Shown piece after piece: positions 5,425 to 32,342 of a stretch of DNA of 64,000 nucleotides (its first letter is position 1; each line of letters begins with the position of its first letter). Under the pieces are notes generated by a model that ran no database searches, had not been told where the DNA came from, and saw only the letters and a program-made list of their open reading frames with translations. Made by a program: the position numbers and the translations under genes. The DNA comes from Bdellovibrionales bacterium (lineage in GTDB: Bacteria; Bdellovibrionota; Bdellovibrionia; Bdellovibrionales; JAGQZY01): positions 58,229 through 122,228 of the forward strand of contig JAGQZY010000001.1 in assembly GCA_020435205.1 (NCBI GenBank). The letters run 5' to 3'.

Positions 5425-6210
5425 TTATAATTTTCGGCACTTAATGTCAAGGCTCTGGGGATAGCGAACCGAGGCTAAAAATAGCCCCTGTGGCGGCGCT
5501 GGCGGGCCAGCTTCTGATCGGTCCTCGGCCCTGAGGAGCTGGGAAATGGCCTGTGGCGGCAGCCCCTTTTCGTGGTACCACATGAGAGTTCCTACAATAT
5601 TTCTCACCATTTGCTTCAGAAAGCCATTACCTCGGATATGGAAGTCCACAAAACCGCTATCTCGAGGCACCCAGCGGCAAAGATTGAGGCGGCGGCGCGT
5701 GGAGGACACCGTGGTCCCCTGGGATTGAAAACTGGAAAAGTCATGCTCGCCCAAGAGAAGCTCTGACGCCTCCTGTAAAAATTTCAGGTTTAGCTCGTCC
5801 CGAAAGTGCCAGCTATAGCGGAGAAGGAAAGGGTTTGCCCGCTCACGGCAAAACATTCGATAGACATAGCGCTTTTCCACAGCCGAAATTTGGGCGTGAA
5901 AATCCGAGGGAGCCAATTCCACTTTTTTAATACTGATGGAGGCTGGGGTGAGCCGGTTGAGACTGTAGTGGAGATTCTTCAGGCGCTTGTCGTTAGGCAA
6001 GTCGGCGTGGGCCCACTGGTTAATAGCATGGACTCCGCGGTCGGTGCGGCCAGAGCCGACCACCTTCACTTCTTGATCAAAGATTTTGGAAAGCCTTTCT
6101 TCAAGGACGCCCTGAACCGTGTGGGAATGTTTGGGCTGTTTTTGCCAACCAAAGAAATCAGTTCCATCATAGCAAAGGCAAAAACGGACCCTTTGCAGCT
6201 TAGAAGCCAA
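5425..6210 (-). CDS. truA: tRNA pseudouridine(38-40) synthase TruA
   Basis: RFCLCYDGTDFFGWQKQ...GSGRTDRGVHA (catalytic Asp motif). The TTG start at 6210 overlaps the stop of the upstream barrel gene. Confidence 0.9.
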   Translation of the reverse strand: MASKLQRVRFCLCYDGTDFFGWQKQPKHSHTVQGVLEERLSKIFDQEVKVVGSGRTDRGVHAINQWAHADLPNDKRLKNLHYSLNRLTPASISIKKVELAPSDFHAQISAVEKRYVYRMFCRERANPFLLRYSWHFRDELNLKFLQEASELLLGEHDFSSFQSQGTTVSSTRRRLNLCRWVPRDSGFVDFHIRGNGFLKQMVRNIVGTLMWYHEKGLPPQAISQLLRAEDRSEAGPPAPPQGLFLASVRYPQSLDIKCRKL

Positions 6211-7216
6211 CAGCGAATCCCCCAGTGATCATGTTGGAGGTAAAATCCTTGCGTTCATCCAGACCCACCACTTGGCGGAACTGAAGGTCCAGCCAAGTTT
6301 CTGTGATTCCATACTCAGAGTAAAGAGCTGTTCCATAGCTAAAGTAAGACAGGGAAATCAAAAGGCCAGCCGAAGCCACTAAAACCGGGGCACCACCAAA
6401 ATGATTGGAACCACCATCACTTCGGCGCTCCCAAAAAGTATAGTAGCCAGCGCCACCATCCACATAAGGAACAAAAAGTTGTCCCGGACTAAAACCAAAT
6501 TTATAAGTCACAGTGGCTGTGTTGGGGAAAACCAAGAATTGAAAGGTCTCTTTGGGCTGAATGCCAGGGTTAGATCCCCCAGAGAACTCCCCGTTTCCGT
6601 CACTAAAAAAGAGTCCCGACCCCACTTTAAATAAGAAGTTCCCAAGGAAATCAAAAAGCTTCCATTCATAATCGACATTAAGAATGAAACTCGCCTTGTC
6701 GCCATAGACTTGGGAAAAACCCTTGCTCGGCCCTTGGATATCAGGGGGGCCGTAGACACCGCCACGAAAAGAAAACACAGAGTCCGAGGGTAAAACGGCA
6801 GCATTGTAAATATAGCGGCCATCGGCAGTGACCTTTTGTGGTTTCTCCATAACATCACTGGGAGGATCGATTTTGGACTCTTTAGAGTAGTAATAGGTGC
6901 CGTCGTCATCAAGGTCTTCTGGTTTTTCGATGTCACCCGGAGTTTTGTCAGTGACCTTTTCTCCATCACCGTAATAGTAGATCCCGTCGTCGGAGACCCT
7001 CTGAGGTTGTTCGACACCTTCGATATTTATCGCTGTAGGCTTTTTACTTTTGGTATTGTAAATATAGGTTCCGTTTTTATGCACTTGTGCTGGGGCTTCG
7101 CTGAGTGGGTCTTCCTGTGTCGATGTTGAGGGATAGGGGTACTCGGCAGGGGGGGCCTCTTCTGCAAAGGCACAAAATGAATAGAGAAGACAAAGAAGGG
7201 AAAGTAATTTTATCAT
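6200..7216 (-). CDS. Predicted outer-membrane beta-barrel protein (338 aa) with N-terminal EKPxxVxxDGxYYY repeats; partner of the upstream CFI-box protein
   Basis: Start ATG 7216 with SD GGAGGAAGG. Signal peptide MIKLLSLLCLLYSFCAFA. The C-terminal half has alternating hydrophobic strands and ends ...ITGGFAVGF (terminal aromatic beta-signal). An ATGA overlap links it to the stop of 7213..8625. Confidence 0.6.
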   Translation of the reverse strand: MIKLLSLLCLLYSFCAFAEEAPPAEYPYPSTSTQEDPLSEAPAQVHKNGTYIYNTKSKKPTAINIEGVEQPQRVSDDGIYYYGDGEKVTDKTPGDIEKPEDLDDDGTYYYSKESKIDPPSDVMEKPQKVTADGRYIYNAAVLPSDSVFSFRGGVYGPPDIQGPSKGFSQVYGDKASFILNVDYEWKLFDFLGNFLFKVGSGLFFSDGNGEFSGGSNPGIQPKETFQFLVFPNTATVTYKFGFSPGQLFVPYVDGGAGYYTFWERRSDGGSNHFGGAPVLVASAGLLISLSYFSYGTALYSEYGITETWLDLQFRQVVGLDERKDFTSNMITGGFAVGF

Positions 7217-8625
7217 ACCTTCCTCCCGCGAGCTCTCCACACAAAAAATCCTATACCCAAAAGAATGAAAATAAAGGCCAAATGACTGGTGAAGTGCAAG
7301 GCCAACCCAGCGGCGGCCCAAAGTGGCCACAGCACAACTCGAAACACAGCCTTGCTCTTCGGGTGATTGCGGATCCATTTGGCGATAGGAGGGCTCACGG
7401 TATAATAGGTTTGGATCAACAAGCGGCCAAGGCTAGAGCGCTTTAGGATGCGGTTGCGAAATTTACGGAAAGTTTTTACTTTGGGGCGGAAGGGAGTTCC
7501 ATAGGTGGCGGTTGTAATAAAGCAGTCAAACTCTTCTTCAAGCAAGCCGACCACTTTAGAGGGGCTCGCGATGTGGCAGTTCTGTTGCCAAGCATCGGTA
7601 CTCGTGGTGTCAAAGCACTCTGTGTTCAGGCTAGCCACAGTGTTAGAAATGGAAGTGAAATAGCCAACGTTACCGGCCTCATCAATACTGGCCATGCGAA
7701 ACCAATACTCACTGCCGTTGTTAAGACCCTCGATAGTGTTATCACTCAAACCCAAAGTTTGAAATCCAGTACTTGAGTTTGAGGACACTTTAAAATCTTT
7801 TGACGAAGCCGTTTGTGTATTAGGGAGGGTGCGTTCTGCATAATAAATACGTATAGAAGAAAAATCGACATCACTACTAGTAATGCCAGGGAAGCTCGAA
7901 GGAGCTTTGACGTCCTCAATAAAAACTTTGCCGTCGCCCGGGTAAGCAATAAAGTTGCAAGCCGATAATCCTGAGTAGCTGACGGTGCTTTCACAAAAGG
8001 TGGCCGGGGAGGCGCCACTGTTGATGACAGAAAGCCCTAACTCAATTTGGGTGCTATAGTCATCGATGGTGTCGTCACTATCGGTAGAGGAATCAAAACC
8101 CACCCGAATTCTTTTGGTGCTGGCGGCTGAAGAGCTACAACTGCTCACTCCTAAAACATCATTACAAAGGGTACTCCAGGGAATATAAACAGTGACGGGG
8201 GAGTTGACCTTGGTCGTCTTATTATTTTCAGGGGCGTCACTGCCACTACCATTGCCGGTGGGTGACATGGAGATATCGTCCAACCGGGTTGGGTTCGTGT
8301 CGTCGATGGTGATCAGGGGGGTTCCATAAACAGTGGAAGACTCAAAAGTGATTTTTAATCTTAAGTTTGGATAAATGCTTCGCGAGTTACAAGCCTCGCC
8401 GTCTCCAGCCACCTCACAGGTATCACAAGGGTTGGCAAGATCCGTTGAACTACAGTCAAGACCGCTGACCCTGCCGCCATAAACTTTGGTTACTGTTTGC
8501 GAGTTATCGGTACAAAGTTTACCTGTACAGGTAGAGAACCCACCAATTTGGGTGATTTTAATTTCAGCCAAAGCCTGCGATGAGAACAGTAGAATAATTA
8601 GGCAATAAAAGTGTCTAAGCCCCAT
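7213..8625 (-). CDS. Secreted adhesin-like protein (Cys-rich N-domain, Ser/Thr/Asp-rich region, FN3-like segment) ending in a CFI-box module plus C-terminal TM helix and basic tail
   Basis: Signal peptide MGLRHFYCLIILLFSSQALA. FN3-like segment GSEYWFRMASIDEAGNVGYF. CFI-box module CFITTATYGTPFRPKVKTFRKFRNRIL...GRLLIQTYYTVSPPIAKWI. TM helix and tail LAFIFILLGIGFFVWRARGRKV. Confidence 0.65.
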   Translation of the reverse strand: MGLRHFYCLIILLFSSQALAEIKITQIGGFSTCTGKLCTDNSQTVTKVYGGRVSGLDCSSTDLANPCDTCEVAGDGEACNSRSIYPNLRLKITFESSTVYGTPLITIDDTNPTRLDDISMSPTGNGSGSDAPENNKTTKVNSPVTVYIPWSTLCNDVLGVSSCSSSAASTKRIRVGFDSSTDSDDTIDDYSTQIELGLSVINSGASPATFCESTVSYSGLSACNFIAYPGDGKVFIEDVKAPSSFPGITSSDVDFSSIRIYYAERTLPNTQTASSKDFKVSSNSSTGFQTLGLSDNTIEGLNNGSEYWFRMASIDEAGNVGYFTSISNTVASLNTECFDTTSTDAWQQNCHIASPSKVVGLLEEEFDCFITTATYGTPFRPKVKTFRKFRNRILKRSSLGRLLIQTYYTVSPPIAKWIRNHPKSKAVFRVVLWPLWAAAGLALHFTSHLAFIFILLGIGFFVWRARGRKV

Positions 8626-8643: not shown

Positions 8644-9663
8644 TTAACTAAGCTTGTCAAAAATCCTTTGGGCAATAAGCAACCCGTTGGCAGCCGCGCC
8701 TCGCTGGAGATTATCGGCGACCACCCACATCATCCATGTGTTCTCAAAGCCAGGATCCTTGCGGAGTCGACTGACAAACGCGTTGGTTTCCCCTTGCACT
8801 TCTCGGTAACTATGAAAACTCTTCTCTGAGTTGTGGGGGAGGTAGCTAATGAAGTCGCATGCCTGCAAAGCTTTCTCAATAGTGGCGCGGTCCACGTCCC
8901 TGTTGAGGGTCACCCAACAAGCCTCACCGTGGGCGTTCATAGTGGGCACTCTCACGGTGAAAGCAGAAATTTTTAGGCCAGGAAGATCCAAAATCTTCTT
9001 GGTTTCTTGCATGATTTTGATTTCTTCTGAACAAAATCCTTCGTCATTAAAAGAACCAATTTTAGGTTGGCAATCAAAAGCTATAGGTAAAATGAATGTT
9101 TTCCCAGGCTGCAAGTTTTCGCCCCTGAGGACCTGTTGACTTTGATTAACAAGATCCTCAATACCCTCTTTGCCAGCGCCGCTGACGGATTGATAACTGG
9201 CAACCCGAACTTCTTCGATGCCAAATTCTTTTAAAGCCTCAAGCGCCATGACCAATTGGATGGTGGAGCAATTGGGGTTGGCGATGATCTGGGGGGTGGT
9301 AGCCGAAGCGATGTGATGAAAATTAATTTCTGGTACAACCAAAGGTGTCGTGGGATTCATGCGATAGGCGGCTGAATTATCAATGGCAATGGCTCCGTCT
9401 TCGACAGCTTTTGGGGCCCATTCCTTACTAATATCATCCCCTGAAGAGAAAAAGACCACGTCAAGACCTTTGAAGCAGCCATTTTCTAAAACTTGGCATG
9501 CAAAGCTTTGATCCCTAAAATTGATGGAGCGACCTTTTGATTTTTCGCTGGCAAAAAGGCGAAGTTCAGTGAAGTTATATTCTGACTTTTCAAGAAGTTG
9601 AATAAAAGTCTCACCAACAAGGCCTGTGGCCCCAACAATTCCTACCGCGATTGAACGACTCAT
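8644..9663 (-). CDS. asd: Aspartate-semialdehyde dehydrogenase
   Basis: VGIVGATGLVGETF NAD-binding motif; active-site region IIANPNCSTIQLVMAL; 339 aa. Confidence 0.92.
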   Translation of the reverse strand: MSRSIAVGIVGATGLVGETFIQLLEKSEYNFTELRLFASEKSKGRSINFRDQSFACQVLENGCFKGLDVVFFSSGDDISKEWAPKAVEDGAIAIDNSAAYRMNPTTPLVVPEINFHHIASATTPQIIANPNCSTIQLVMALEALKEFGIEEVRVASYQSVSGAGKEGIEDLVNQSQQVLRGENLQPGKTFILPIAFDCQPKIGSFNDEGFCSEEIKIMQETKKILDLPGLKISAFTVRVPTMNAHGEACWVTLNRDVDRATIEKALQACDFISYLPHNSEKSFHSYREVQGETNAFVSRLRKDPGFENTWMMWVVADNLQRGAAANGLLIAQRIFDKLS

Positions 9664-10433
9664 TTATTTTTCCTCACTCTGGCTCTTCTCTTCTTTTGTG
9701 TTTTGTGAAACAAACCTAGGACAGCGCCTAGGATGGCATAGGCAAAGAAAAGTACAAATAACATAACTTCGGGCTCGGCAGCCACGATAAATAGGATAAG
9801 AACCCCTATGACTAGGTAGGTGAAAGGTTGTCTCCGTTTAAAGTTAAGATCTTTGAAGCTTTTATAACGAAAATTGCTCACCATGGTTAGGCCAAGCATA
9901 AAAGTCATAAATAGAAGCAACCAATTGTGACTCGCATCCAGCTCGAGCTTGGTAAAACAAAGGACGGAACTGGCAACAATACCTGCCGCCATAGGGATCG
10001 GCAGTCCTTGGAAGTGGCTACTTTCATCAGCGGATTGCACATTAAAGCGCGCCAGACGTAAAGCTCCGCAGGCGACGAAAACGAAGCTAGCCAGCCAGCC
10101 CACCCGACCAAAAGGTTGTAGGGCCCAAAGGTACATGATGAGGGCCGGTGCCATACCAAAACTGATCAGGTCACAAAGAGAGTCATACTCGGCGCCAAAG
10201 TGACTAGAGGTGCGAGTCAATCTGGCCACCCGCCCATCGAGTAGATCAAAAACGGCGGCAGCGACGATAGCGTAAGAGCCAACAAGATATTCACCACGAA
10301 TGGCAAGGATAATAGCCATAAAGCCAAAAAACATATTCGTTGTCGTTAACAGATTCGGAAGAAGATAAATGTTAGAGCCTGGCGGTGGCTTTTTAGGAGC
10401 ACCGTTTTGGCGAGAAAAGTTTGTTTCGCTCAC
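9660..10433 (-). CDS. pssA: CDP-diacylglycerol--serine O-phosphatidyltransferase (CDP-alcohol phosphatidyltransferase family)
   Basis: Motif DLLDGRVARLTRTSSHFGAEYDSLCDLI (DGx2ARx8Gx3Dx3D); polytopic membrane protein. Confidence 0.8.
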   Translation of the reverse strand: MSETNFSRQNGAPKKPPPGSNIYLLPNLLTTTNMFFGFMAIILAIRGEYLVGSYAIVAAAVFDLLDGRVARLTRTSSHFGAEYDSLCDLISFGMAPALIMYLWALQPFGRVGWLASFVFVACGALRLARFNVQSADESSHFQGLPIPMAAGIVASSVLCFTKLELDASHNWLLLFMTFMLGLTMVSNFRYKSFKDLNFKRRQPFTYLVIGVLILFIVAAEPEVMLFVLFFAYAILGAVLGLFHKTQKKRRARVRKNK

Positions 10434-11083
10434 ACTAAGCCTCCAAAAAGAAAAAAGAGGCCCGACAACAAAATGGCACTTAAGACAGGCTGAGTGAGAT
10501 TGTCATCCAGTCCCCAAATCGGAACCAGTTCAGCAATGGCTCCAATGAGACCGGCGAGGAAAGTCACAACCAAAATATGATCCAACATAATCCCATGGCT
10601 TTGAAAATAAAAATAGGCCGCTACTGAACAAAATAAAAAAGCCGCTACTGAACCTTGCAAGCTCTTGTTTCCAATTAATTTATCATGTCCAAAAAGAAGG
10701 CCAAACAAACTTGCCGTGGGGTCGCCAACAGCGAGAAAGAGGACTGCCAGTGCAACAATTGGAGTTGGAAATAAAAAGAAAATGATTCCGCAGCCAACCA
10801 CAAGGTGAGTTGTTCCCGATAAGCGAAAGGCCTCTCTTTTGCGAAGAACTGGGTTGAAAACCTTAACCGCCCATCGGTTTACGGGTTTCGAATACTGTCG
10901 TCCAAAATCCAAAAGTAAAATGGAGCTGCCAAGGATGCCGTAAATCCAAAGACAAGTGGTGAAAGAAAATTGGTCGAGGAGAATAAACATGGCCATCACG
11001 CCCGTGAAGTGGAATATCTTTCGAGTTAAATGCAAATCTTGCTGGCTTTTTAGGCGTAACATTTTGGCACCCAGTGTTAACAC
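10430..11083 (-). CDS. Polytopic membrane protein of the CTP-dependent dolichol/phytol/diacylglycerol kinase (cytidylyltransferase-like) superfamily
   Basis: Multi-TM protein. The motif GNKSLQGSVAAFLFC resembles the KS(L/W)EGS motif of the family. A 4-nt overlap links it to pssA. Confidence 0.5.
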   Translation of the reverse strand: MLTLGAKMLRLKSQQDLHLTRKIFHFTGVMAMFILLDQFSFTTCLWIYGILGSSILLLDFGRQYSKPVNRWAVKVFNPVLRKREAFRLSGTTHLVVGCGIIFFLFPTPIVALAVLFLAVGDPTASLFGLLFGHDKLIGNKSLQGSVAAFLFCSVAAYFYFQSHGIMLDHILVVTFLAGLIGAIAELVPIWGLDDNLTQPVLSAILLSGLFFLFGGLV

Positions 11084-25314: not shown

Positions 25315-27228
25315 GTGTTTCGTATCGCTTTACTGATTCCACTCTTCTTTATGATGGCTGCGGCTAGCTTGCCAGAGTATCGTCTGCCTTCGCCCAGTGC
25401 AGAAGGGGTCGACGAGGTATCATTATTTCAACAATATTGTGGAAGTAGTGTCGATCCACAATCAGCTGAAATTCCTAGAGTGAACTACGATGATCCCTTG
25501 GTGTGGGCTGCTACAGAAAAGCTAAACACTGTCGCACCAGTCAGTATCTATCTTTATCATCATGTCATCTCAAACTATGGCTTTGCCAAAGGTGTTGATA
25601 AAGATTTTCCATGGGATGTTTATGCTAATACCGATCCTGATGACGATTATGAAAACATTTTGGAGATTTGGGATAATCAACAGTATGGTGAGAAAAAAGA
25701 TTGGGATACTGGTGAATCTGAATTTGATGTAGAGTACCTTAAACGAAAATTTGATTATGAGTACTTTCATAAAAACCCTTCCTATCGCCAGCCTAAAGGG
25801 GTTAAGGGGAATACCCACGCATTTTTGACTTATCTTTGTGGTGAGTTTCGCGATCGCCCGACCTTGATTAAAGAAAAACTCACTTGGTTTAGCCGCATGA
25901 TCAAACTTCCTGTAAAGGCCCAAGAGAAGATCAATGCATCAAAAAATTTAAAGAATATTTGGCTGAAAATTTCTGCCGAATCCTATGCCCCTTACATTAA
26001 ATTTTCTCGCGCCCTTTACGATGCGAAAGAGGCCGCAAATCGAGTGATGGTTCCTCTTGCTAACCTTAAAGTGGACAAACCGGTGCCGGCCTACACCATC
26101 TGCGAAACTAAACATATTTTTACTGAGTACGTAACTAATGGTAATAAAAAGTTTCCTGGATATGAGACCTATATGAAAGGGTTTATGGGAGATGAATTTG
26201 AAACTGGGCTGCCGGATTCAAAAAGTTATAAAATGGCAAAATGTTCTCAGGAAGATCGTGACTATTATTACGACTTCCGAGGGGATTCTAATATTAAGCC
26301 AAACTCTCCAGAATCCAATGCAATGATTTGGCAAGCCAACTCCATTATGCAGCGATGTAAGCGCAATGAAAAAGGCAAGGTCAGTCTTGATCCAAAAGTG
26401 AATAGCGAATGGTTCGATGTTGCTAACTGCTCCGGTTATATGACTAGCCCTTTTTACTCTCGTTGGAATGCAGCTCGTTCAGCACTTGTGACTTGGTTAG
26501 CCTACGACCGTCAGTTTGATGACATTTTTGCTGGGCACGGTTCCTACAGCATTATCTTTAAACCCACTTTAACCCCAGAAACCGAGCCTTTTGGATTTAC
26601 TACTAGTGGCGAAGACTACTGGGGGGTAGGATCACATCTCCTTCCTGAGTGGGTCCAAAATGCGTCCACTTACTGGACACAGTCAGATGCCGGTTTAAAT
26701 GATGTTTTTGAAATTGCTAATGGCAAAACAGGTCAATTGGTTATGGCTTACGAAAGAATCCGTAATGCAGTTGACCGCCACACAGACTGGTACCAAACAG
26801 GTTATGACGATACTCACTTTGAGCCCACACTCACGCGCACGATTGACCAAGCCTTTTCTCCCTTTGTTGCAAGCTCTTATGAAATGAGTGAGTCTGATGG
26901 TTTTACGGCTCCTGGTCTGACGGTGAGAGCTCCGGCAGACAATAAAAAGCAATGGATGTTTGTTTTTCGTGTACACAAAGATAAGTGGTACAACACAGAC
27001 ACTTTGCTAGCAGGTAAACCTCTTGACCTTAATTGGCAGTGGTTCGATGAGACTTCTTTTGGTACTAGCCATTTAGCAGATAGTGAAAGAGCTTGGGACC
27101 GTCTGGGAACAGCCCTTGAAGGTGAAATGGATAGTATTCTTTATCTACACAACATTGAACGTGGTGCTATTAAAGGAATGAGCGGAACTCCTAAAGTTTA
27201 CGATGATGGCTTAGGAGCCACTCACTAA
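25315..27228 (+). CDS. Large secreted hypothetical protein (637 aa), no family recognised
   Basis: GTG start after GGGGG. Signal peptide MFRIALLIPLFFMMAAA. Rich in Trp, Tyr and Asp. Divergent from the EEP nuclease gene. Confidence 0.5.
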   Translation: MFRIALLIPLFFMMAAASLPEYRLPSPSAEGVDEVSLFQQYCGSSVDPQSAEIPRVNYDDPLVWAATEKLNTVAPVSIYLYHHVISNYGFAKGVDKDFPWDVYANTDPDDDYENILEIWDNQQYGEKKDWDTGESEFDVEYLKRKFDYEYFHKNPSYRQPKGVKGNTHAFLTYLCGEFRDRPTLIKEKLTWFSRMIKLPVKAQEKINASKNLKNIWLKISAESYAPYIKFSRALYDAKEAANRVMVPLANLKVDKPVPAYTICETKHIFTEYVTNGNKKFPGYETYMKGFMGDEFETGLPDSKSYKMAKCSQEDRDYYYDFRGDSNIKPNSPESNAMIWQANSIMQRCKRNEKGKVSLDPKVNSEWFDVANCSGYMTSPFYSRWNAARSALVTWLAYDRQFDDIFAGHGSYSIIFKPTLTPETEPFGFTTSGEDYWGVGSHLLPEWVQNASTYWTQSDAGLNDVFEIANGKTGQLVMAYERIRNAVDRHTDWYQTGYDDTHFEPTLTRTIDQAFSPFVASSYEMSESDGFTAPGLTVRAPADNKKQWMFVFRVHKDKWYNTDTLLAGKPLDLNWQWFDETSFGTSHLADSERAWDRLGTALEGEMDSILYLHNIERGAIKGMSGTPKVYDDGLGATH

Positions 27229-27244
27229 AATAAGGGACTCTTTG

Positions 27245-27799
27245 TTACCGAGAGGCCATTGGTTTTAAGTCACCTTTTCGAAAAAAAGTGATTAATAACA
27301 AGGGAAGCATTAACAAGAGGCCACCCGTTTGGGGGCCTTTTTTATTATTGGTGGGAGCGATCATGCCGCAGCCACCCCCTCCGCCCCCAGAGCCTGAGGT
27401 GGAACCATCGGAAGCAGGATCAGAGTTGTTAAGAAACTCATCGCCGTTGCTGGTTCCATCATTGTCGGAATCCAGGTTACCAAATTGGGAATCTGCGAAA
27501 ATCGTTTCTAAGCTATTAGATCCCGTGGCGGGGAGAGAAGAGCCATTGCCGAGTCCCAGGCGGTTGGCGGCACTGCGAAAGTCCTCACCAAAATTATTGC
27601 CACTGATGGTAGCAGAGCCACCTGCGGAGCTGGTATGACAAAGAAGGCAACTTCCCTCTTTGCCGCCCACTCCAGACCCAATTCCATAGTGGGCTTCAAT
27701 AGCCAGCAAAACCCTGGAAGGATTTGTATTCATATAGGACGTCGAAGCAGAGGCCTCAGGAAGGCCAGCCAATAAAATAAAGCCTGCAGTTAAAATCAT
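27245..27799 (-). CDS. Secreted protein with a single CxxCH haem-c motif, a DxDxDG Ca-binding-like motif, a Gly6-Cys stretch and a C-terminal TM/basic sorting-type tail
   Basis: MILTAGFILLAGLPEASA; CLLCH (27635..27649); DSDNDGTSNGDEF; SGSGGGGGGCGMIAPTNNKKGPQTGGLLLMLPLLLITFFRKG. It has no SD of its own and its ATG overlaps the stop of the upstream micro-ORF. Confidence 0.6.
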   Translation of the reverse strand: MILTAGFILLAGLPEASASTSYMNTNPSRVLLAIEAHYGIGSGVGGKEGSCLLCHTSSAGGSATISGNNFGEDFRSAANRLGLGNGSSLPATGSNSLETIFADSQFGNLDSDNDGTSNGDEFLNNSDPASDGSTSGSGGGGGGCGMIAPTNNKKGPQTGGLLLMLPLLLITFFRKGDLKPMASR

Positions 27800-27909
27800 T
27801 TATTTTGGCTTTGTCTGGATTCTTTTCTGCGTTGTTGCAGTCTTTTCTTTCTGCGGCGACGGCGTCTTTCAATAGTTTTTCTACGTTCAGATTTCTTGTG
27901 GGCTCCCAT
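27796..27909 (-). CDS. Unannotated 37-aa hyperbasic micro-ORF (MGAHKKSERRKTIERRRRRKKRLQQRRKESRQSQNK)
   Basis: My own translation. ATG 27909 lies 6 nt after GAGGAGG. Its TGA stop overlaps the ATG of 27245..27799 (ATGA). It is too short for the ORF track. Confidence 0.45.
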   Translation of the reverse strand: MGAHKKSERRKTIERRRRRRKKRLQQRRKESRQSQNK

Positions 27910-27980
27910 GGTGGACCTCCTCGATCCCCCCTATTCAATCTATGGAGGGGGGAGTTGGCAAGCCCAGGCGTGGCGAGACC

Positions 27981-30554
27981 CTAGTAGGAGTAAGTTGAGG
28001 CCATCCCCATGCTTTGCCAACTGAGACTGAGCAAGATTTGGGACCCAGATCGGTCATAACCTCCAGACTCGGTGAGTAGAGAGATATGCCCTGAAAGCCA
28101 AATGGGTCCAATTCCCTGACCAATAGAAGCATCGAGCCAGTTGGATTTGTAAGATTCAGAGATATAAAAATCCACTGAACTGCGATTGATGGTTCGGTAG
28201 GCAAATGACATGAGCAAGGGTTGGCTAGAAAGTCCAGAAAAAGCATACTGACCATAGATCCGAATAGTTGATGTCTCAGGAAGAACAAGGTTCAAGGTTC
28301 CACTTGTTTCAATCACTTCGGGGTCGCGAAAATAGCTGAGCTCCATTTGCAAGCCACTTTTTTGACTACTCCCTGTGGTCCCATAGCCGCTCAGCCCTTG
28401 GGAGGTGTTCATGCCTATACCGGCATATGCGGACAAATATTGAGCCTCCGGTAGCTTTTGGTTAAGTGCTAGATCTTCGTGAACTTCTTTATTAAAGATC
28501 AAACCCCCGCCAAGGCTAAACAGGCTTCCTAGAGGAATCTGCCCGCCCATATCTAAGGACATCTTATTGATTTTTAAAATATCCTTGCTGGTAGAGGTTT
28601 TCTGAGAAAATTCAATGCCACCAGGTAAACCAAAAAAAAGATTAGAAGCTAACTGTAGCGATAGATCACCAATTTCAGTTTTAGTTACAACTTCGCTAAA
28701 AGGAAGTGTTGTCAGTTTCTCTTCTTGCTCAGAAGGGGACTGATAGCGAACTCCAAGCGCAAAGCTGGGGCTTGTGTAGGCAAAGTAGGCCTGAGGATAA
28801 GAAAAACTTTCCTCAACTTTTGTTAAATTGCCCTCACCAGAAAATTGACTGAGCCCATATTGAGCCGCTAGGACAAAACCTGATTGCGAGTCGAGAAGAA
28901 GTGAGGGGTTGTCAGGCGCAATATCTTCAAAGTAATTAGAAATGGCAATATTCGCTTGTGCCCATTGAGGGAAAAGCAAAAAAAGAAATAAAATGAAAAC
29001 AGTCAGTCCCCGTGCCATTGGTAGTACGAGCAGGATGAGTAAAACCAGGGGCCACGGGTTGTCCCAGATAAAGAGGAGCGAGGAAAGAACGACTCGAGTG
29101 GAAGACTTCCAAAAGGGATTCTGTTCGATAAAGTAAGCCATACTGGGGGAATACTGATAGTATTTTTTGATAAACCAGCGACCCATGGCAAACTTTTTTA
29201 AAAAATGATCGCGGATCGAGCGAAAAGCTTCGACTTTGGGATGAAGGGACGAGCCAAAAGCAGCCGTCGCAATAAAGCAATGAAGATCTTTACCTTGTTG
29301 ATCCCCCCCGCAAGAAGGCGTGAAATTGGGATCATAGGGAGTAACGGCCTCACGGTAATTGGCCACGTAGCCGTAATAGGTATTCAGCACGTGAGCGGCG
29401 TTGGCATAACCCTCTCTTCCGAAAGGAATTCCAGAATGAATAATATTTGGGTTAGAAAATTTGCCAATGCGAGTACAGTTAAATCCATTATCTCGACAAT
29501 GATCGGAATAGGACATCACGCTGCGGATTTGATTGACGGTATCGACAAATCCATACTTTTCAGGATGGCTCACTTCTTCAGTAAAATCTAACCCATGTTG
29601 GTAACGATCATGCAGCAAGCTCAAGTTGTGTCCCATTTCATGGGACATGGTATATGCGGGGCAGCCATAAAGATAAACACTATAGCCATAGGCCTCGTTG
29701 AAGTTAATTCGGTTTTGCGAGCCATCATAGGAGGCTGTGTAACCAAGGCCACAATAAGTGGTCGGCGCATCAATAGTCATTTGTACTAAATCGGCACCTA
29801 GTGCATCGCGAGCCGAGGTGACATCTGGAAGAGTGATCAAAGTGGAGAGGTCACTGGACATATCGCCAGCGCTCGTATGAGTCGTTGCACGCACATCAAG
29901 AAGTCGATAGCGAAAATTGATACAACTCTGCTCAAGAGTGTCATTCACCACAACCATATTCGCTTCTAACATAGGTTCTATATTAGAGTTAGTCGCGGCA
30001 TCCGTCGAATAAACTAGGAGAACATCAATAAAATTATCAGAACTTGGCTCTGTAACTGTCGCTCGAGACGAAAGTGATTTTTGTGCGAAAGCCTTGAGAG
30101 ACTCTAGGTCTTCCATTGGATTTTGATGACTTGCTTGCAGTGAACTAATATAAAACTGATTCTTGAGATCTTTTTGCACTCGATAGACTTTTCCTCCTGC
30201 AAAGATCTCGCCGATAACTTGTTTAGCATTAATATTGAGGCTGACGTAGCTACTGGGATCGTGGTCGACTTTGCCAAACCAAATAAACCCACTGCGAGAG
30301 GGAACAATTTTTTGCTTTCTTGCAGTTAAAGTGAAGTTTTTGTCGAGATCAAATTGAATCGTTTCTGAGTCTTTAACTTCAGTAAGGTCCCCGTCAAGAG
30401 TTATGGCTTGTTGGCCTTCTTCGAAATAAGGGCTTTGGGAATATACTGGCTTCAAGCTTAAAATGCTTTTATCAGATCGGATAGAAAATATTTTAGATTG
30501 CGCAGAAACATCAGGGCTCAACAAGAGCACAAACATTATAAACATCAAACTCAT
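27981..30554 (-). CDS. 857-aa fusion protein: signal peptide, propeptide-like region, metzincin (reprolysin-like) Zn-protease, CFI-box module, two hydrophobic segments, and a C-terminal beta-barrel-like domain
   Basis: HEMGHNLSLLHD (29607..29642) plus Met-turn SVMSYS. CFIATAAFGSSLHPKVEAFRSIRDHFL...KKYYQYSPSMAYFI. WPLVLLILLVLPMARGLTVFILFLFLLFPQWAQA. The C-terminal ~320 aa have alternating strands and end ...MGMASTYSY. Confidence 0.7.
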   Translation of the reverse strand: MSLMFIMFVLLLSPDVSAQSKIFSIRSDKSILSLKPVYSQSPYFEEGQQAITLDGDLTEVKDSETIQFDLDKNFTLTARKQKIVPSRSGFIWFGKVDHDPSSYVSLNINAKQVIGEIFAGGKVYRVQKDLKNQFYISSLQASHQNPMEDLESLKAFAQKSLSSRATVTEPSSDNFIDVLLVYSTDAATNSNIEPMLEANMVVVNDTLEQSCINFRYRLLDVRATTHTSAGDMSSDLSTLITLPDVTSARDALGADLVQMTIDAPTTYCGLGYTASYDGSQNRINFNEAYGYSVYLYGCPAYTMSHEMGHNLSLLHDRYQHGLDFTEEVSHPEKYGFVDTVNQIRSVMSYSDHCRDNGFNCTRIGKFSNPNIIHSGIPFGREGYANAAHVLNTYYGYVANYREAVTPYDPNFTPSCGGDQQGKDLHCFIATAAFGSSLHPKVEAFRSIRDHFLKKFAMGRWFIKKYYQYSPSMAYFIEQNPFWKSSTRVVLSSLLFIWDNPWPLVLLILLVLPMARGLTVFILFLFLLFPQWAQANIAISNYFEDIAPDNPSLLLDSQSGFVLAAQYGLSQFSGEGNLTKVEESFSYPQAYFAYTSPSFALGVRYQSPSEQEEKLTTLPFSEVVTKTEIGDLSLQLASNLFFGLPGGIEFSQKTSTSKDILKINKMSLDMGGQIPLGSLFSLGGGLIFNKEVHEDLALNQKLPEAQYLSAYAGIGMNTSQGLSGYGTTGSSQKSGLQMELSYFRDPEVIETSGTLNLVLPETSTIRIYGQYAFSGLSSQPLLMSFAYRTINRSSVDFYISESYKSNWLDASIGQGIGPIWLSGHISLLTESGGYDRSGSQILLSLSWQSMGMASTYSY

Positions 30555-31543
30555 GGATTTACCTTTCTCGCTTTACTTTCTTTAATGAGATCATGAAGGC
30601 GACGAAAAACCTGTTGGCTGGTAATCGCCTTCATACAATGAAAATGCCCTTGTGGACAGGAGTTCCCTCCGTGCACATGGCAGGGCCTGCAATCGAGCTC
30701 TTCATCCTCGACAACCGCGCAACGTTCAAAAGAAGGATAGAAGCCAAACTCTTTGGTAGTGGGTCCAAAAATAGCCAATGTTGGTTTTTTGAAGCCAATG
30801 GAGATATGCATGGGGCCTGAGTCCGTGGTGACGACTGCGGTGGCCTTTTTAATAATAGACATCAACTCCTCAAGACTGGTTTGATTGGAAAAATTGATAA
30901 CTTCCTTTGGCCAGGGTTTATCACCATTACCAACAATAACTACGTTAATCCCATTAAAAATGAGTGTATTTGCTAATTCAAAAAAACCTGGCCACTCTTT
31001 ATTTTTTTGGCTGGCATAGGGGTGAAGGACTATAAAATTTGGAAAGCTGAGTCCGCTCACATCAAGGCCTTCAAAGTCTGGAAAGCGTGGACGTAGCTTT
31101 TCTAGTTCAGGGATTTCAATGTTAAAAGGGGATAAACAGACTTCAGCATATTTTTCGACAACATGCTTGGTGAGTTCACTTTTGTATTTTCTATTTTTAA
31201 CAAAAGCGCGACGCTCTCGCGATTGCTTTTTGATATGGGTAAACCTTCCTTTGACAAAAGCTGCTAAAGAGAAGGACTTCAAGTTTCCTTGAAGATCGAA
31301 TACATAATCATAATCAGGAATGGTTCGATAAAGTTTTATCATCTGAATGATTGACGATTTTGCGGGCAGAGTGAAAATTTGGTGGATGGATCCAAGGCTT
31401 GCAAAAATAGCCTTGCCTCCGGGAGAGGTCAGTACGTCAATTTCAGCCTCAGGGAATTTGCGATGGAAATAGTCGATGACCCCTGTCGACAAAACAATAT
31501 CGCCGGTAGCACTAAATCGAACGAACAAAACTTTCATACTCAT
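30551..31543 (-). CDS. Glycosyltransferase family 9 (heptosyltransferase-like)
   Basis: MKVLFVRFSATGDIVLSTGV..., HPYASQKNKEWP, VTTDSGPMHIS, C-terminal CRPCHVHGGNSCPQGHFHCM. Its TGA overlaps the ATG of the 857-aa gene (ATGA). Confidence 0.75.
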   Translation of the reverse strand: MSMKVLFVRFSATGDIVLSTGVIDYFHRKFPEAEIDVLTSPGGKAIFASLGSIHQIFTLPAKSSIIQMIKLYRTIPDYDYVFDLQGNLKSFSLAAFVKGRFTHIKKQSRERRAFVKNRKYKSELTKHVVEKYAEVCLSPFNIEIPELEKLRPRFPDFEGLDVSGLSFPNFIVLHPYASQKNKEWPGFFELANTLIFNGINVVIVGNGDKPWPKEVINFSNQTSLEELMSIIKKATAVVTTDSGPMHISIGFKKPTLAIFGPTTKEFGFYPSFERCAVVEDEELDCRPCHVHGGNSCPQGHFHCMKAITSQQVFRRLHDLIKESKARKVNP

Positions 31544-31592
31544 AAATTAATTGGGTTAGAGAGAAGGGGCAAGAAAAACTGTCTGGTGAGCA

Positions 31593-32342
31593 CTATTCTC
31601 GACCCTCATTGAGTTCGGCCAGTCTTGCAGCAAAAAAAGTACGTACCTGAAGTTGACGAATCTCAGAAGTTTTGTCCCCGACATGGTCTCGCAGGAAGGT
31701 GAGAGCGGATTCGGAATGTAAGACACTTTCTTTTAGGTTTTCAAGTGTTGCAGGAGAGGTCAGGGCTCGAGGAGGGATACTCTGGCCTATGGATCTTAAA
31801 TGTTGAGCAAAAAGAAATTGAATAAAAGGAACAAAATCGTAGCCCTTCATAGGGACGTCAAAACTTTCGAATAACATAGAGACTATGCTTCTCTCTGGTG
31901 CATCTTTAATATCACTGATTCTTTCTGGAATGCTTTGCAAATCCGCAAGGCTTGGTGAGGGGCAGTTTTCAATGAAGATCTTTTGCTCCTGTGCAAGGTA
32001 TTCCATCATTTTTTTGTCTGTCCAGTCACCTTTAGAAAAATCGATGGCGACTTGAACTTTAAGCAGGAAAGGTTTCTCCTCCGCAAAATAATAGAAAGAA
32101 TAAAACCCATGATGGTCGTCTATTAAGCGTATATGATTGCGTGTATCCTTGATGACAGTGAAAGGATGTTGTTCACTTCGCCACTGAAGAAATTTCTTTT
32201 TTGCGTCTAAATCAGAAGCCCCCCCTGGGCCGCGCCAGGCCATGAACTCAATGATCAATCGCTTGAGTTTCTCTTTAGCCCAGGAATGACCAAGGAGGTT
32301 TTGGCAAAAACCAATCTCCTCGGATGAAACAAGTCTTTCCAT
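31593..32342 (-). CDS. ParB-like nuclease-domain protein (ParBc_2/PF08857-like)
   Basis: IRLIDDHHGFYS (DxHH-type motif) and DIKDAPERSIVSMLFESFDVPMKGYDFVPFIQFLFAQHLR, which resembles the DDPYRSLAG...PFxEFxWADFLR block of that family (from recall). It starts 2 nt after the acs stop. Confidence 0.45.
   Translation of the reverse strand: MERLVSSEEIGFCQNLLGHSWAKEKLKRLIIEFMAWRGPGGASDLDAKKKFLQWRSEQHPFTVIKDTRNHIRLIDDHHGFYSFYYFAEEKPFLLKVQVAIDFSKGDWTDKKMMEYLAQEQKIFIENCPSPSLADLQSIPERISDIKDAPERSIVSMLFESFDVPMKGYDFVPFIQFLFAQHLRSIGQSIPPRALTSPATLENLKESVLHSESALTFLRDHVGDKTSEIRQLQVRTFFAARLAELNEGRE

Follow-up and report, generated by a model that had tools for sequence, protein, structure and literature searches.

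A reprolysin-like protease, a CFI-box module and a predicted outer-membrane barrel share one open reading frame in Bdellovibrionota, likely as a two-part precursor

Organization of the fused open reading frame

The DNA analysed here, referred to as the window, is a stretch of 64,000 nucleotides (nt) from a Bdellovibrionales bacterium (assembly GCA_020435205.1, contig JAGQZY010000001.1, positions 58,229 to 122,228), and all coordinates are window positions. On its reverse strand lies a gene in which a secreted metalloprotease, a CFI-box module and a predicted outer-membrane beta-barrel follow one another. An initial annotation, made from the letters alone, had placed these parts in a single uninterrupted open reading frame (ORF) of 857 residues, and this was confirmed. 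The fused ORF and its parts are listed below; here and in the text, a slash inside a sequence marks a predicted cleavage site.

27981..30554, reverse strand: fused ORF, 857 residues without interruption, stop codon at 27981..27983
30501..30554, reverse strand: N-terminal signal peptide, residues 1-18, MSLMFIMFVLLLSPDVSA/QS, read from the sequence
30045..30500, reverse strand: beta-rich pro/N-domain, residues ~19-170 (AlphaFold2 strands at residues 43-141; predicted local distance difference test, pLDDT, 80-90)
29355..30032, reverse strand: reprolysin-like (M12B-type) metzincin catalytic domain, residues ~175-400 (Pfam, NCBIfam, Foldseek)
29607..29642, reverse strand: zinc motif HEMGHNLSLLHD, residues 305-316, with the Met-turn SVMSYS at residues 345-350
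29076..29279, reverse strand: internal CFI-box module, residues 426-493 (NF041770, 78 bits, cut-off 40)
29016..29054, reverse strand: membrane helix of the CFI-box-CTERM anchor, W501-M513, then the loop MARG (sequence, homologue alignment)
28953..29006, reverse strand: putative retained internal signal peptide of the barrel, L517-A534, core LTVFILFLFLLF then PQWAQA (column-for-column alignment with stand-alone barrels)
27984..28952, reverse strand: predicted outer-membrane beta-barrel, ~14 strands, residues 535-857 (AlphaFold2, Foldseek)

The start ATG of the fused ORF overlaps the stop codon of an upstream GT9 heptosyltransferase gene as ATGA, and a Shine-Dalgarno-like AGAAAGG lies upstream of it. 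The full-length AlphaFold2 model (pLDDT 77.8; predicted template modelling score, pTM, 0.70) confirmed the domain order and placed a helix at residues 3-11, within the N-terminal signal peptide. The pro-domain had first been put at about 290 residues. Since the family models of the protease begin at about residue 175, it was reduced to about 150 residues (~19-170).

The metzincin site and the Met-turn named by the initial annotation were both present, and H305, E306, H309, H315, D316, M347 and Y349 were invariant in a 20-sequence alignment. The zinc motif shows Ser at the position of the Gly of the family consensus (HExxHxxGxxH(D)). Three Pfam models scored above their gathering thresholds over residues 187-368, namely Reprolysin_5 (36.2, threshold 27), Reprolysin_3 (33.6, threshold 22.4) and Reprolysin_4 (25.6, threshold 22). 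In NCBIfam, Mep72 (NF052434) reached 90 bits against a cut-off of 645 and CpaA (NF033511) reached 24 against 750, over residues ~175-414. Judged by these profiles, the protease is related to the Mep72 and CpaA families and is a member of neither. When the full-length model was searched with Foldseek, the best protease matches were the type II secretion substrate CpaA (6o38) and ADAM17, whose pro-domain plus catalytic domain was matched by the pro-domain and protease of the fused protein.

The CFI-box module opens with the invariant Cys426 in CFIATAAFGS and is followed by predicted helices (residues 427-498, pLDDT 74-90); C426, F427, A429, A431, R448, G458, Y465 and P470 were invariant in the 20-sequence alignment. 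As in the NF041770 family, a membrane helix and basic residues come after the domain, here W501-M513 and MARG, and the counterpart of this loop in the homologues is a strongly basic cluster (RKK, RARKRKK, KRR and similar). Canonical CFI-box proteins terminate in the membrane helix and basic tail, 95-116 residues past the Cys, whereas the fused protein continues for 341 residues past the basic loop. Both hydrophobic segments that had been described behind the module were recovered, the second being L517-F528, which leads into AQA/N535. The junction from the CFI box to the barrel thus reads NPWPLVLLILLVLP-MARG-LTVFILFLFLLFPQWAQA/NIA, with a signal peptidase I site predicted at A534/N535.

The C-terminal domain is predicted to be a barrel of an uncatalogued family

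The strand-alternating C-terminal domain, estimated beforehand at about 320 residues, comprises 323 residues, and its reading as a barrel was borne out by modelling. AlphaFold2 prediction of residues 535-857 from a seven-sequence alignment gave an all-beta structure (pLDDT 84, pTM 0.82), in which about 14-16 strands were counted by DSSP. When this domain was compared with the PDB by Foldseek, outer-membrane barrels only were returned, and the best superpositions were those on the 14-stranded CymA (template modelling score, TM-score, 0.62) and FadL (0.54), at 10-13% identity, which indicates likeness of fold only. By the model, therefore, the C-terminal region is a barrel. Its N-terminal segment is conserved (consensus xVAxPSxF...NPA), and N549-P550 are invariant. 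Pfam and NCBIfam scans of the domain were without a match, and an exhaustive profile search with it through 1.84 billion representative proteins found 42 proteins. On these searches the barrel family is rare and uncatalogued.

The order of passenger and barrel in one ORF, with split versions elsewhere, recalls the layout of type Va and type Vb secretion, and the initial annotation had drawn this analogy. In an autotransporter-like mechanism, the N-terminal passenger would be translocated in cis by the barrel to which it is fused, and the CFI box would be a new kind of linker; NalP and EstA were among the weaker Foldseek matches. The likeness to type V, that is, an N-terminal secreted passenger and a C-terminal barrel in one polypeptide with two-gene equivalents elsewhere, fails beyond this gene layout. 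The modelled fold is nearer to CymA and FadL, with TM-scores of 0.43-0.44 for the autotransporter barrels NalP and EstA against 0.62 for CymA, and both fold and strand number differ from those of the 12-stranded type Va translocator. No Pfam Autotransporter match was found, and the 16-stranded Omp85-type TpsB barrel and the POTRA and TPS domains of type Vb were without a match in Pfam and NCBIfam, both in the fused protein and in the scanned split partners. Moreover, passenger and barrel are parted by two membrane-spanning hydrophobic segments with a cytoplasmic loop between them, an arrangement that type V proteins do not have and that would form an inner-membrane hairpin with a probable signal peptidase site. 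Since the passenger would be tied to the inner membrane, with the barrel re-exported on its own signal peptide, a covalent linker through the barrel pore is excluded by this arrangement, and we regard the type V-like mechanism as very improbable.

The fusion is conserved in divergent homologues

A word-indexed search recovered six full-length homologues (812-889 residues, 23-34% identity) with the same order of parts. Among the 42 proteins of the barrel family, 17 were full-length fusions (812-957 residues) in which the barrel is C-terminal, three were N-terminally truncated fragments that still included the CFI box, and 10 were stand-alone proteins (308-345 residues) in which the barrel starts from about residue 20. 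The named fused members came from Bdellovibrionales, Pseudobdellovibrionaceae and Oligoflexia metagenome-assembled genomes (MAGs), all of the phylum Bdellovibrionota, and the best genome match to the fused gene was a Bdellovibrionales MAG (locus L010). The NCBI records of the fused homologues are all titled 'hypothetical protein'.

Split versions of the protease-barrel pair occur in other genomes, as would be expected if the fusion were an assembly or sequencing artefact, in which a lost stop codon or a frameshift had joined what are really two genes. However, the architecture was common to about 20 homologues from independent assemblies at 23-34% identity, and the frame across the junction remains hydrophobic and conserved. 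Furthermore, lengths within clusters were identical: one 90%-identity cluster had six members, each of 880 residues, from NCBI, JGI, ENA and Logan assemblies, and one fused protein was present on at least seven contigs (ENA, NCBI and Logan assemblies). An assembly artefact is therefore excluded, its probability being negligible, and the fusion is real and conserved as far as these sequences tell. Two of the findings that the initial annotation had named as fatal to its proposal, an artefact and a lack of homologous architectures, were thus not encountered; about 20 fused homologues exist, and split architectures occur elsewhere.

Split orthologues and the retained signal peptide of the barrel

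At the loci of stand-alone barrels, a reprolysin-like protease gene with a terminal CFI-box-CTERM lay directly upstream in 6/6 readable cases (L005, L006, L009, L089, L090 and L091), with gaps of -8 to +14 nt between the genes. In all six proteases the CFI-box-CTERM is followed by the membrane helix and the basic tail. At a seventh split locus (L008) the contig is too short to judge, and the upstream frame ends in a hydrophobic stretch and a basic tail. The split orthologues of the same protease and the same barrel are thus adjacent, often overlapping genes, which at the level of sequence is direct Rosetta-stone evidence inside one orthologous family. Since the two parts are fused in some genomes and are adjacent overlapping genes in others, the genetic evidence that the CFI-box protease and the uncatalogued barrel work together is strong. 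In a crude neighbour-joining tree (no support values) fused and split forms interleave, which suggests several fusion or fission events in the barrel family.

For an alignment of 34 sequences, the junctions of 24 fused proteins were combined with the N-terminal regions of the 10 stand-alone barrels. The second hydrophobic segment of the fused proteins coincided exactly with the signal peptides of the stand-alone barrels. The predicted cleavage site, typically A/Q-V-A-x-P, lay 13-16 residues ahead of the invariant NP(A/S), and its -1 residue was A, S or G in 34/34. The alignment thus identifies this second segment of the fusions as the homologue of a signal peptide. An independent start of the barrel within the fused ORF was looked for, and neither a Shine-Dalgarno site before the internal Met nor a conserved Met was found. 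An internal translation start was thereby ruled out, and the barrel must be translated within the fusion. In the barrel model, about 24 residues separate the predicted cleavage site from the first strand, and this linker is conserved as the barrel's own N-terminus in the stand-alone forms; it would be too short for spanning the periplasm if the protein were uncut.

Since the split orthologues adjoin and their signal peptides align with the internal segment, the gene most likely encodes a two-part precursor. We consider it fairly probable that the ORF is an in-frame fusion of two translationally coupled neighbour genes, its cleavage being read from conservation. The first ancestral gene would have encoded a secreted reprolysin-like metalloprotease, anchored in the inner membrane by its C-terminal CFI-box-CTERM (invariant Cys, helical region, membrane helix and basic tail), and the second a dedicated outer-membrane barrel of about 14 strands that had a signal peptide of its own. 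In the fused protein, the anchor's basic tail would double as the positive start of the barrel's signal peptide. The N-terminal signal peptide would start Sec export, so that the protease and the CFI region reach the periplasm, until the anchor helix halts the transfer. The short basic loop would remain cytoplasmic and the internal signal peptide would restart export, after which signal peptidase I would cleave behind AQA534 and the freed barrel would be placed in the outer membrane by the beta-barrel assembly (BAM) machinery. This would yield the two proteins that the split loci also produce, in a fixed 1:1 ratio.

If the precursor were not cleaved, an inner-membrane helical hairpin, a periplasmic protease and an outer-membrane barrel would form one envelope-spanning tether. 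In favour of such a tether, cleavage is deduced from sequence conservation alone, and the -3 position of the predicted site is occupied by a suboptimal residue (Leu or Ile) in a few members. This residue weighs against the two-part precursor, as do the low model confidence over residues 511-534 and, in the window protein, the shortness of the first membrane helix (~13 hydrophobic residues) and the single Arg of its loop. On the other hand, the predicted site is kept as small-x-small in every fused member and belongs to a segment homologous to a genuine N-terminal signal peptide, the fused ORF has no conserved internal start, and the ~24-residue linker is part of the barrel's conserved N-terminus. 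Barrel and protease are therefore probably separated by signal peptidase cleavage, and an uncleaved tether appears quite unlikely.

A second CFI-box locus in the window and further fusions

The window holds two CFI-box modules only. The second belongs to the following pair of genes.

7213..8625, reverse strand: 470-residue secreted protein with a canonical CFI-box-CTERM (box at 7321..7524, NF041770 85.5 bits)
6200..7216, reverse strand: small Bd0486/MXAN_2562-type barrel (NCBIfam; local hidden Markov model, HMM)

The two CFI boxes were 29/69 identical by BLASTP, with no gaps (E = 5e-20), in agreement with an earlier hand alignment of about 29/65. The upstream gene ends in a membrane helix, RARGRKV and the stop codon; its passenger is not a protease and gave a weak match to MXAN_2561_fam (E = 0.006). 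The likely start of the barrel gene is MIKLL at 7216, which has an ATGA overlap with the upstream stop, the Shine-Dalgarno site GGGAGGAAGG and a signal peptide. By sequence, the fused ORF reads as this layout minus the stop codon.

The initial annotation had taken the pair as the split form of the fused gene. The barrel of the fused ORF had no match to the Bd0486/MXAN_2562 families in NCBIfam at E <= 1 and no significant BLASTP match to the barrel at 6200..7216, and hhalign gave a probability of 0.2% for the two. A local HMM built from Bd0486/MXAN_2562-type barrels matched only 6203..7432 in the window. Kinship of the two barrels was thus rejected, and since they are unrelated, the comparison of split and fused forms within the window is an analogy only. 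Hence the Rosetta-stone link holds through the genuine fusion and its true split orthologues, but not through the pair at 6200..8625, where the barrel is unrelated and the passenger is no protease.

An independent fusion was observed in a MAG labelled Myxococcota (L050:5101-7017, forward strand), as one ORF of 639 codons. Between an MXAN_2561-like region and an MXAN_2562-type barrel (191 bits, above cut-off), this ORF has a CFI box (99 bits), then a membrane helix with the basic stretch RRRKIK behind it, and then a segment like a signal peptide. According to the NCBIfam family name, the MXAN_2561 proteins of Myxococcus carry a MYXO-CTERM tag. If the family name is right, CFI box and MYXO-CTERM look interchangeable before the same kind of barrel.

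Another ORF, in an Acidobacteriota MAG (L084:3379-7422, forward strand, 1348 codons), has an internal CFI box (100 bits) with a membrane helix and RRRRTSRRR behind it; a segment like a signal peptide comes next, and then about 380 residues that are unlike a barrel. Barrels may therefore not be the only parts joined to CFI boxes by read-through.

Distribution of CFI boxes with and without barrels

Species-representative genomes contain more than 600 occurrences of the pattern CFIATAAxGS. CFI-box matches included monoderm lineages (Dehalococcoidia, Desulfoscipio and Syntrophomonas), and in the protein search archaeal proteins too. HMMs of both barrel families were run over the 79 best loci, the sample comprising the 80 best CFI-box matches. 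The 14-strand barrel HMM hit the window and L010 only. The Bd0486/MXAN_2562-type HMM hit the window, L050 and nine loci only (L015, L021, L026, L030, L043, L046, L051, L056 and L073), eight of which are labelled Bdellovibrionota. The ninth, L026 (contig JBLMWG010000155.1), is labelled a Bacillota MAG; it shows Bdellovibrio synteny (asd, CFI gene, barrel), with a barrel very near that of Bdellovibrio sp. HCB274 (L046), and by these features is probably a mis-binned contig. The nine loci shared one syntenic block, pssA-asd-CFI gene-barrel-truA-rplM, and its part from pssA to truA is also the gene order of the window.

This distribution sets limits to a partnership of CFI boxes with barrels. Being syntenic and orthologous, the nine Bd0486-type loci amount to one locus and thus count as a single evolutionary observation, not nine. 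Neither barrel family was found near the CFI-box genes in about 69 loci of other phyla, and the occurrence in monoderm bacteria and archaea indicates that the CFI box in general needs no barrel. Moreover, protease and CFI box always co-occur with the 14-strand barrel family, so that a linkage to the CFI box is inseparable from a linkage to the protease. The last point would suit a barrel that is an uptake channel tied to the protease and not to the CFI box, the fusion merely securing co-expression. The anchored protease would then degrade prey or environmental proteins and a CymA/FadL-like channel would import the products. In support of such a channel, one and the same protease family accompanies the 14-strand barrels in all ~27 cases, their nearest folds, CymA and FadL, are solute channels, and CFI-box proteins elsewhere are without barrels. 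However, a barrel family unrelated to this one shows the same kind of overlapping coupling to a non-protease CFI-box protein (6200..8625, L050), and, judging by the NCBIfam names MXAN_2561/MXAN_2562, this same family is coupled to a MYXO-CTERM protein in Myxococcus. Since an unrelated barrel family pairs with non-protease tagged proteins, the recurring element is the sorting tag and not the protease, and we consider the uptake channel unlikely. Given the ~69 loci without either barrel family, the CFI box is, on the sequence survey, a general membrane-proximal anchor or sorting module, and its partnership with barrels is lineage-specific.

All-against-all clustering of the neighbours in the 79 loci yielded mostly antisense shadow ORFs, the one syntenic Bdellovibrionota block and a lead on pssA; no protease-like sorting enzyme emerged among the recurrent neighbours of the CFI-box genes in these loci. 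A homologue of pssA (phosphatidylserine synthase) heads the syntenic block in the window (9663..10502, reverse strand), and in Geomonas and Citrifermentans (L053, L067 and L083, at ~700-1650) such a homologue is found at a distance of about 3 kb from CFI-box genes. NCBIfam includes a 'protein sorting system archaetidylserine synthase' model. A link of pssA to lipid anchoring is a lead, chance synteny being equally possible. Furthermore, an ORF of about 190 residues, without an NCBIfam match, recurs immediately before CFI-box genes in Geobacterales and Nitrospirota (L023, L047, L053, L054, L055, L057, L061, L067, L070 and L083); it could be a partner gene or a part of the passenger in another frame.

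Comparison with known systems

The initial annotation had taken the architecture as not described, which was too strong. CFI-box-CTERM, Bd0486 and MXAN_2562 are NCBIfam families, and a comparable case has been published for Myxococcus (PMC11980579). In MXAN_5598, a fused adhesin, an internal MYXO-CTERM tag is followed by an outer-membrane barrel and an OmpA domain, and the authors read this protein as a two-gene fusion and compare it with TraA and TraB, whose ORFs overlap; they also remark that C-terminal tags are able to function in an internal position (PMC11980579). The genes described here resemble TraA/TraB in that a tag of invariant Cys, membrane helix and basic tail is carried by a surface protein, and in that the ORF of this protein's partner, an outer-membrane barrel, follows downstream with an overlap. 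They resemble MXAN_5598 in the natural fusion, in which the tag has turned internal with the barrel behind it, and in which the split orthologues are adjacent or overlapping.

The two systems also differ. The tag is a CFI-box module of 69 residues here and a short MYXO-CTERM in Myxococcus, and the passenger, unlike that of TraA or MXAN_5598, is a metzincin protease. The barrel has about 14 strands, with neither an OmpA domain nor an existing model; MYXO-CTERM and OmpA were without a Pfam or NCBIfam match in the fused protein. Documented here are an internal signal peptide kept in the fusion and the conservation of its predicted cleavage site, and no such analysis was found for MXAN_5598. The processing enzyme of MYXO-CTERM is the myxosortase MrtX, and export by type II secretion has been proposed for MYXO-CTERM proteins. 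Compared with the described arrangement, what is new is the other tag, the protease passenger, the new ~14-strand barrel family and the retained, probably cleaved internal signal peptide.

NF041770 proteins with Bd0486/MXAN_2562 barrels (NF053801, NF040596) carry the same CFI-box module, which scored 78 bits in the fused ORF. In Bdellovibrionota their next gene is an overlapping barrel gene, as at 6200..8625 and the nine syntenic loci, whereas the barrel of the fused ORF is outside the NF053801/NF040596 families and its CFI box is internal, not C-terminal. A literature search for 'CFI-box' and 'CFIATAA' returned no papers from the library searched, and the fusion of CFI box, protease and barrel appears to be an unpublished variant. 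A search on Bd0486 found no relevant paper. Its neighbour by number, Bd0487 of B. bacteriovorus HD100, has a signal peptide and is reported to be induced 7.4-fold at 30 minutes of predation (PMC2797640); it would be a candidate for the CFI-box gene orthologous to 7213..8625.

PorV of type IX secretion is a FadL-like 14-stranded barrel. It binds the C-terminal sorting domain of secreted proteins at about 1:1 and holds them at the outer membrane (PMC5562754). The likeness of PorV to the system described here would be one of role, namely a barrel holding tagged proteins at the outer membrane. PorV differs in that it serves many substrates and is neither adjacent nor fused to them, and the type IX C-terminal domain is a beta-sandwich, whereas the CFI box is a module of Cys, helix and membrane helix. 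By analogy with TraA/TraB and PorV, the barrel may keep the tagged protein at the outer membrane or act as its carrier there. We infer that the CFI-box protein has in the barrel its partner at the outer membrane (an anchor, shuttle or translocator), comparable to TraB in the case of TraA.

For the precursor itself, a bacterial parallel is FbcH of Bradyrhizobium japonicum, the cytochrome b-c1 precursor, in which an internal signal peptide is cleaved and a second exported protein released. FbcH is likewise a two-protein precursor, while its proteins and compartment are unrelated, both of its products being at the inner membrane.

The hosts are predatory or related Bdellovibrionota, in which surface proteases are of direct interest, and the findings bear on how proteins with C-terminal sorting tags reach the outer membrane or stay there. 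The barrel/protease family appears to represent a conserved precursor that keeps a signal peptide within the chain, an organization for which bacterial examples are rarely documented, and it would offer a simple two-part system amenable to experiment. The barrel family without a Pfam or NCBIfam model and the fused proteins titled as hypothetical also mark a gap in annotation. As a tentative and speculative extension, Bdellovibrionota, and perhaps Myxococcota, might possess a minimal private surface route. In such a route, each Cys-tagged protein would be co-produced with its own barrel, sometimes as a precursor cleaved by signal peptidase, and the barrel would receive the tagged, possibly lipidated end and carry or anchor the protein across the outer membrane. 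If true, this principle of outer-membrane export would stand apart from secretion of types II, V and IX, and in the fused proteins there would be a conserved bacterial internal signal peptide that joins products destined for two different membranes.

Genomic surroundings of the fused gene

The gene directly upstream of the fused gene is the following.

30551..31543, reverse strand: heptosyltransferase gene of the GT9 family (lipopolysaccharide core type), its stop codon overlapping the fused gene's start as ATGA

This overlap suggests that the GT9 gene and the fused gene are co-transcribed. When 27100..31700 was scanned for promoters and terminators, sites were no more numerous than in shuffled sequence. 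No sorting enzyme was found beside the fused gene, the neighbours being the GT9 glycosyltransferase, acetyl-CoA synthetase, BipA, thiolase and similar. On the forward strand, 25315..27228 encodes a protein of 637 residues with an N-terminal hydrophobic signal, for which Pfam and NCBIfam gave no match.

The gene immediately downstream of the fused one (27245..27799, reverse strand) encodes a protein of 184 residues with a signal peptide and a CLLCH (CxxCH haem-binding) motif, to which NCBIfam gave weak matches only. As a conserved neighbour of the fused gene it was rejected, since the 184-residue protein at the corresponding place in L004 is unrelated to it. A run of Gly residues, a Cys (GGGGGGCG), a hydrophobic helix and RKG make up its C-terminus, which in sequence looks like a tripartite sorting tag with a Cys, as in MYXO-CTERM.

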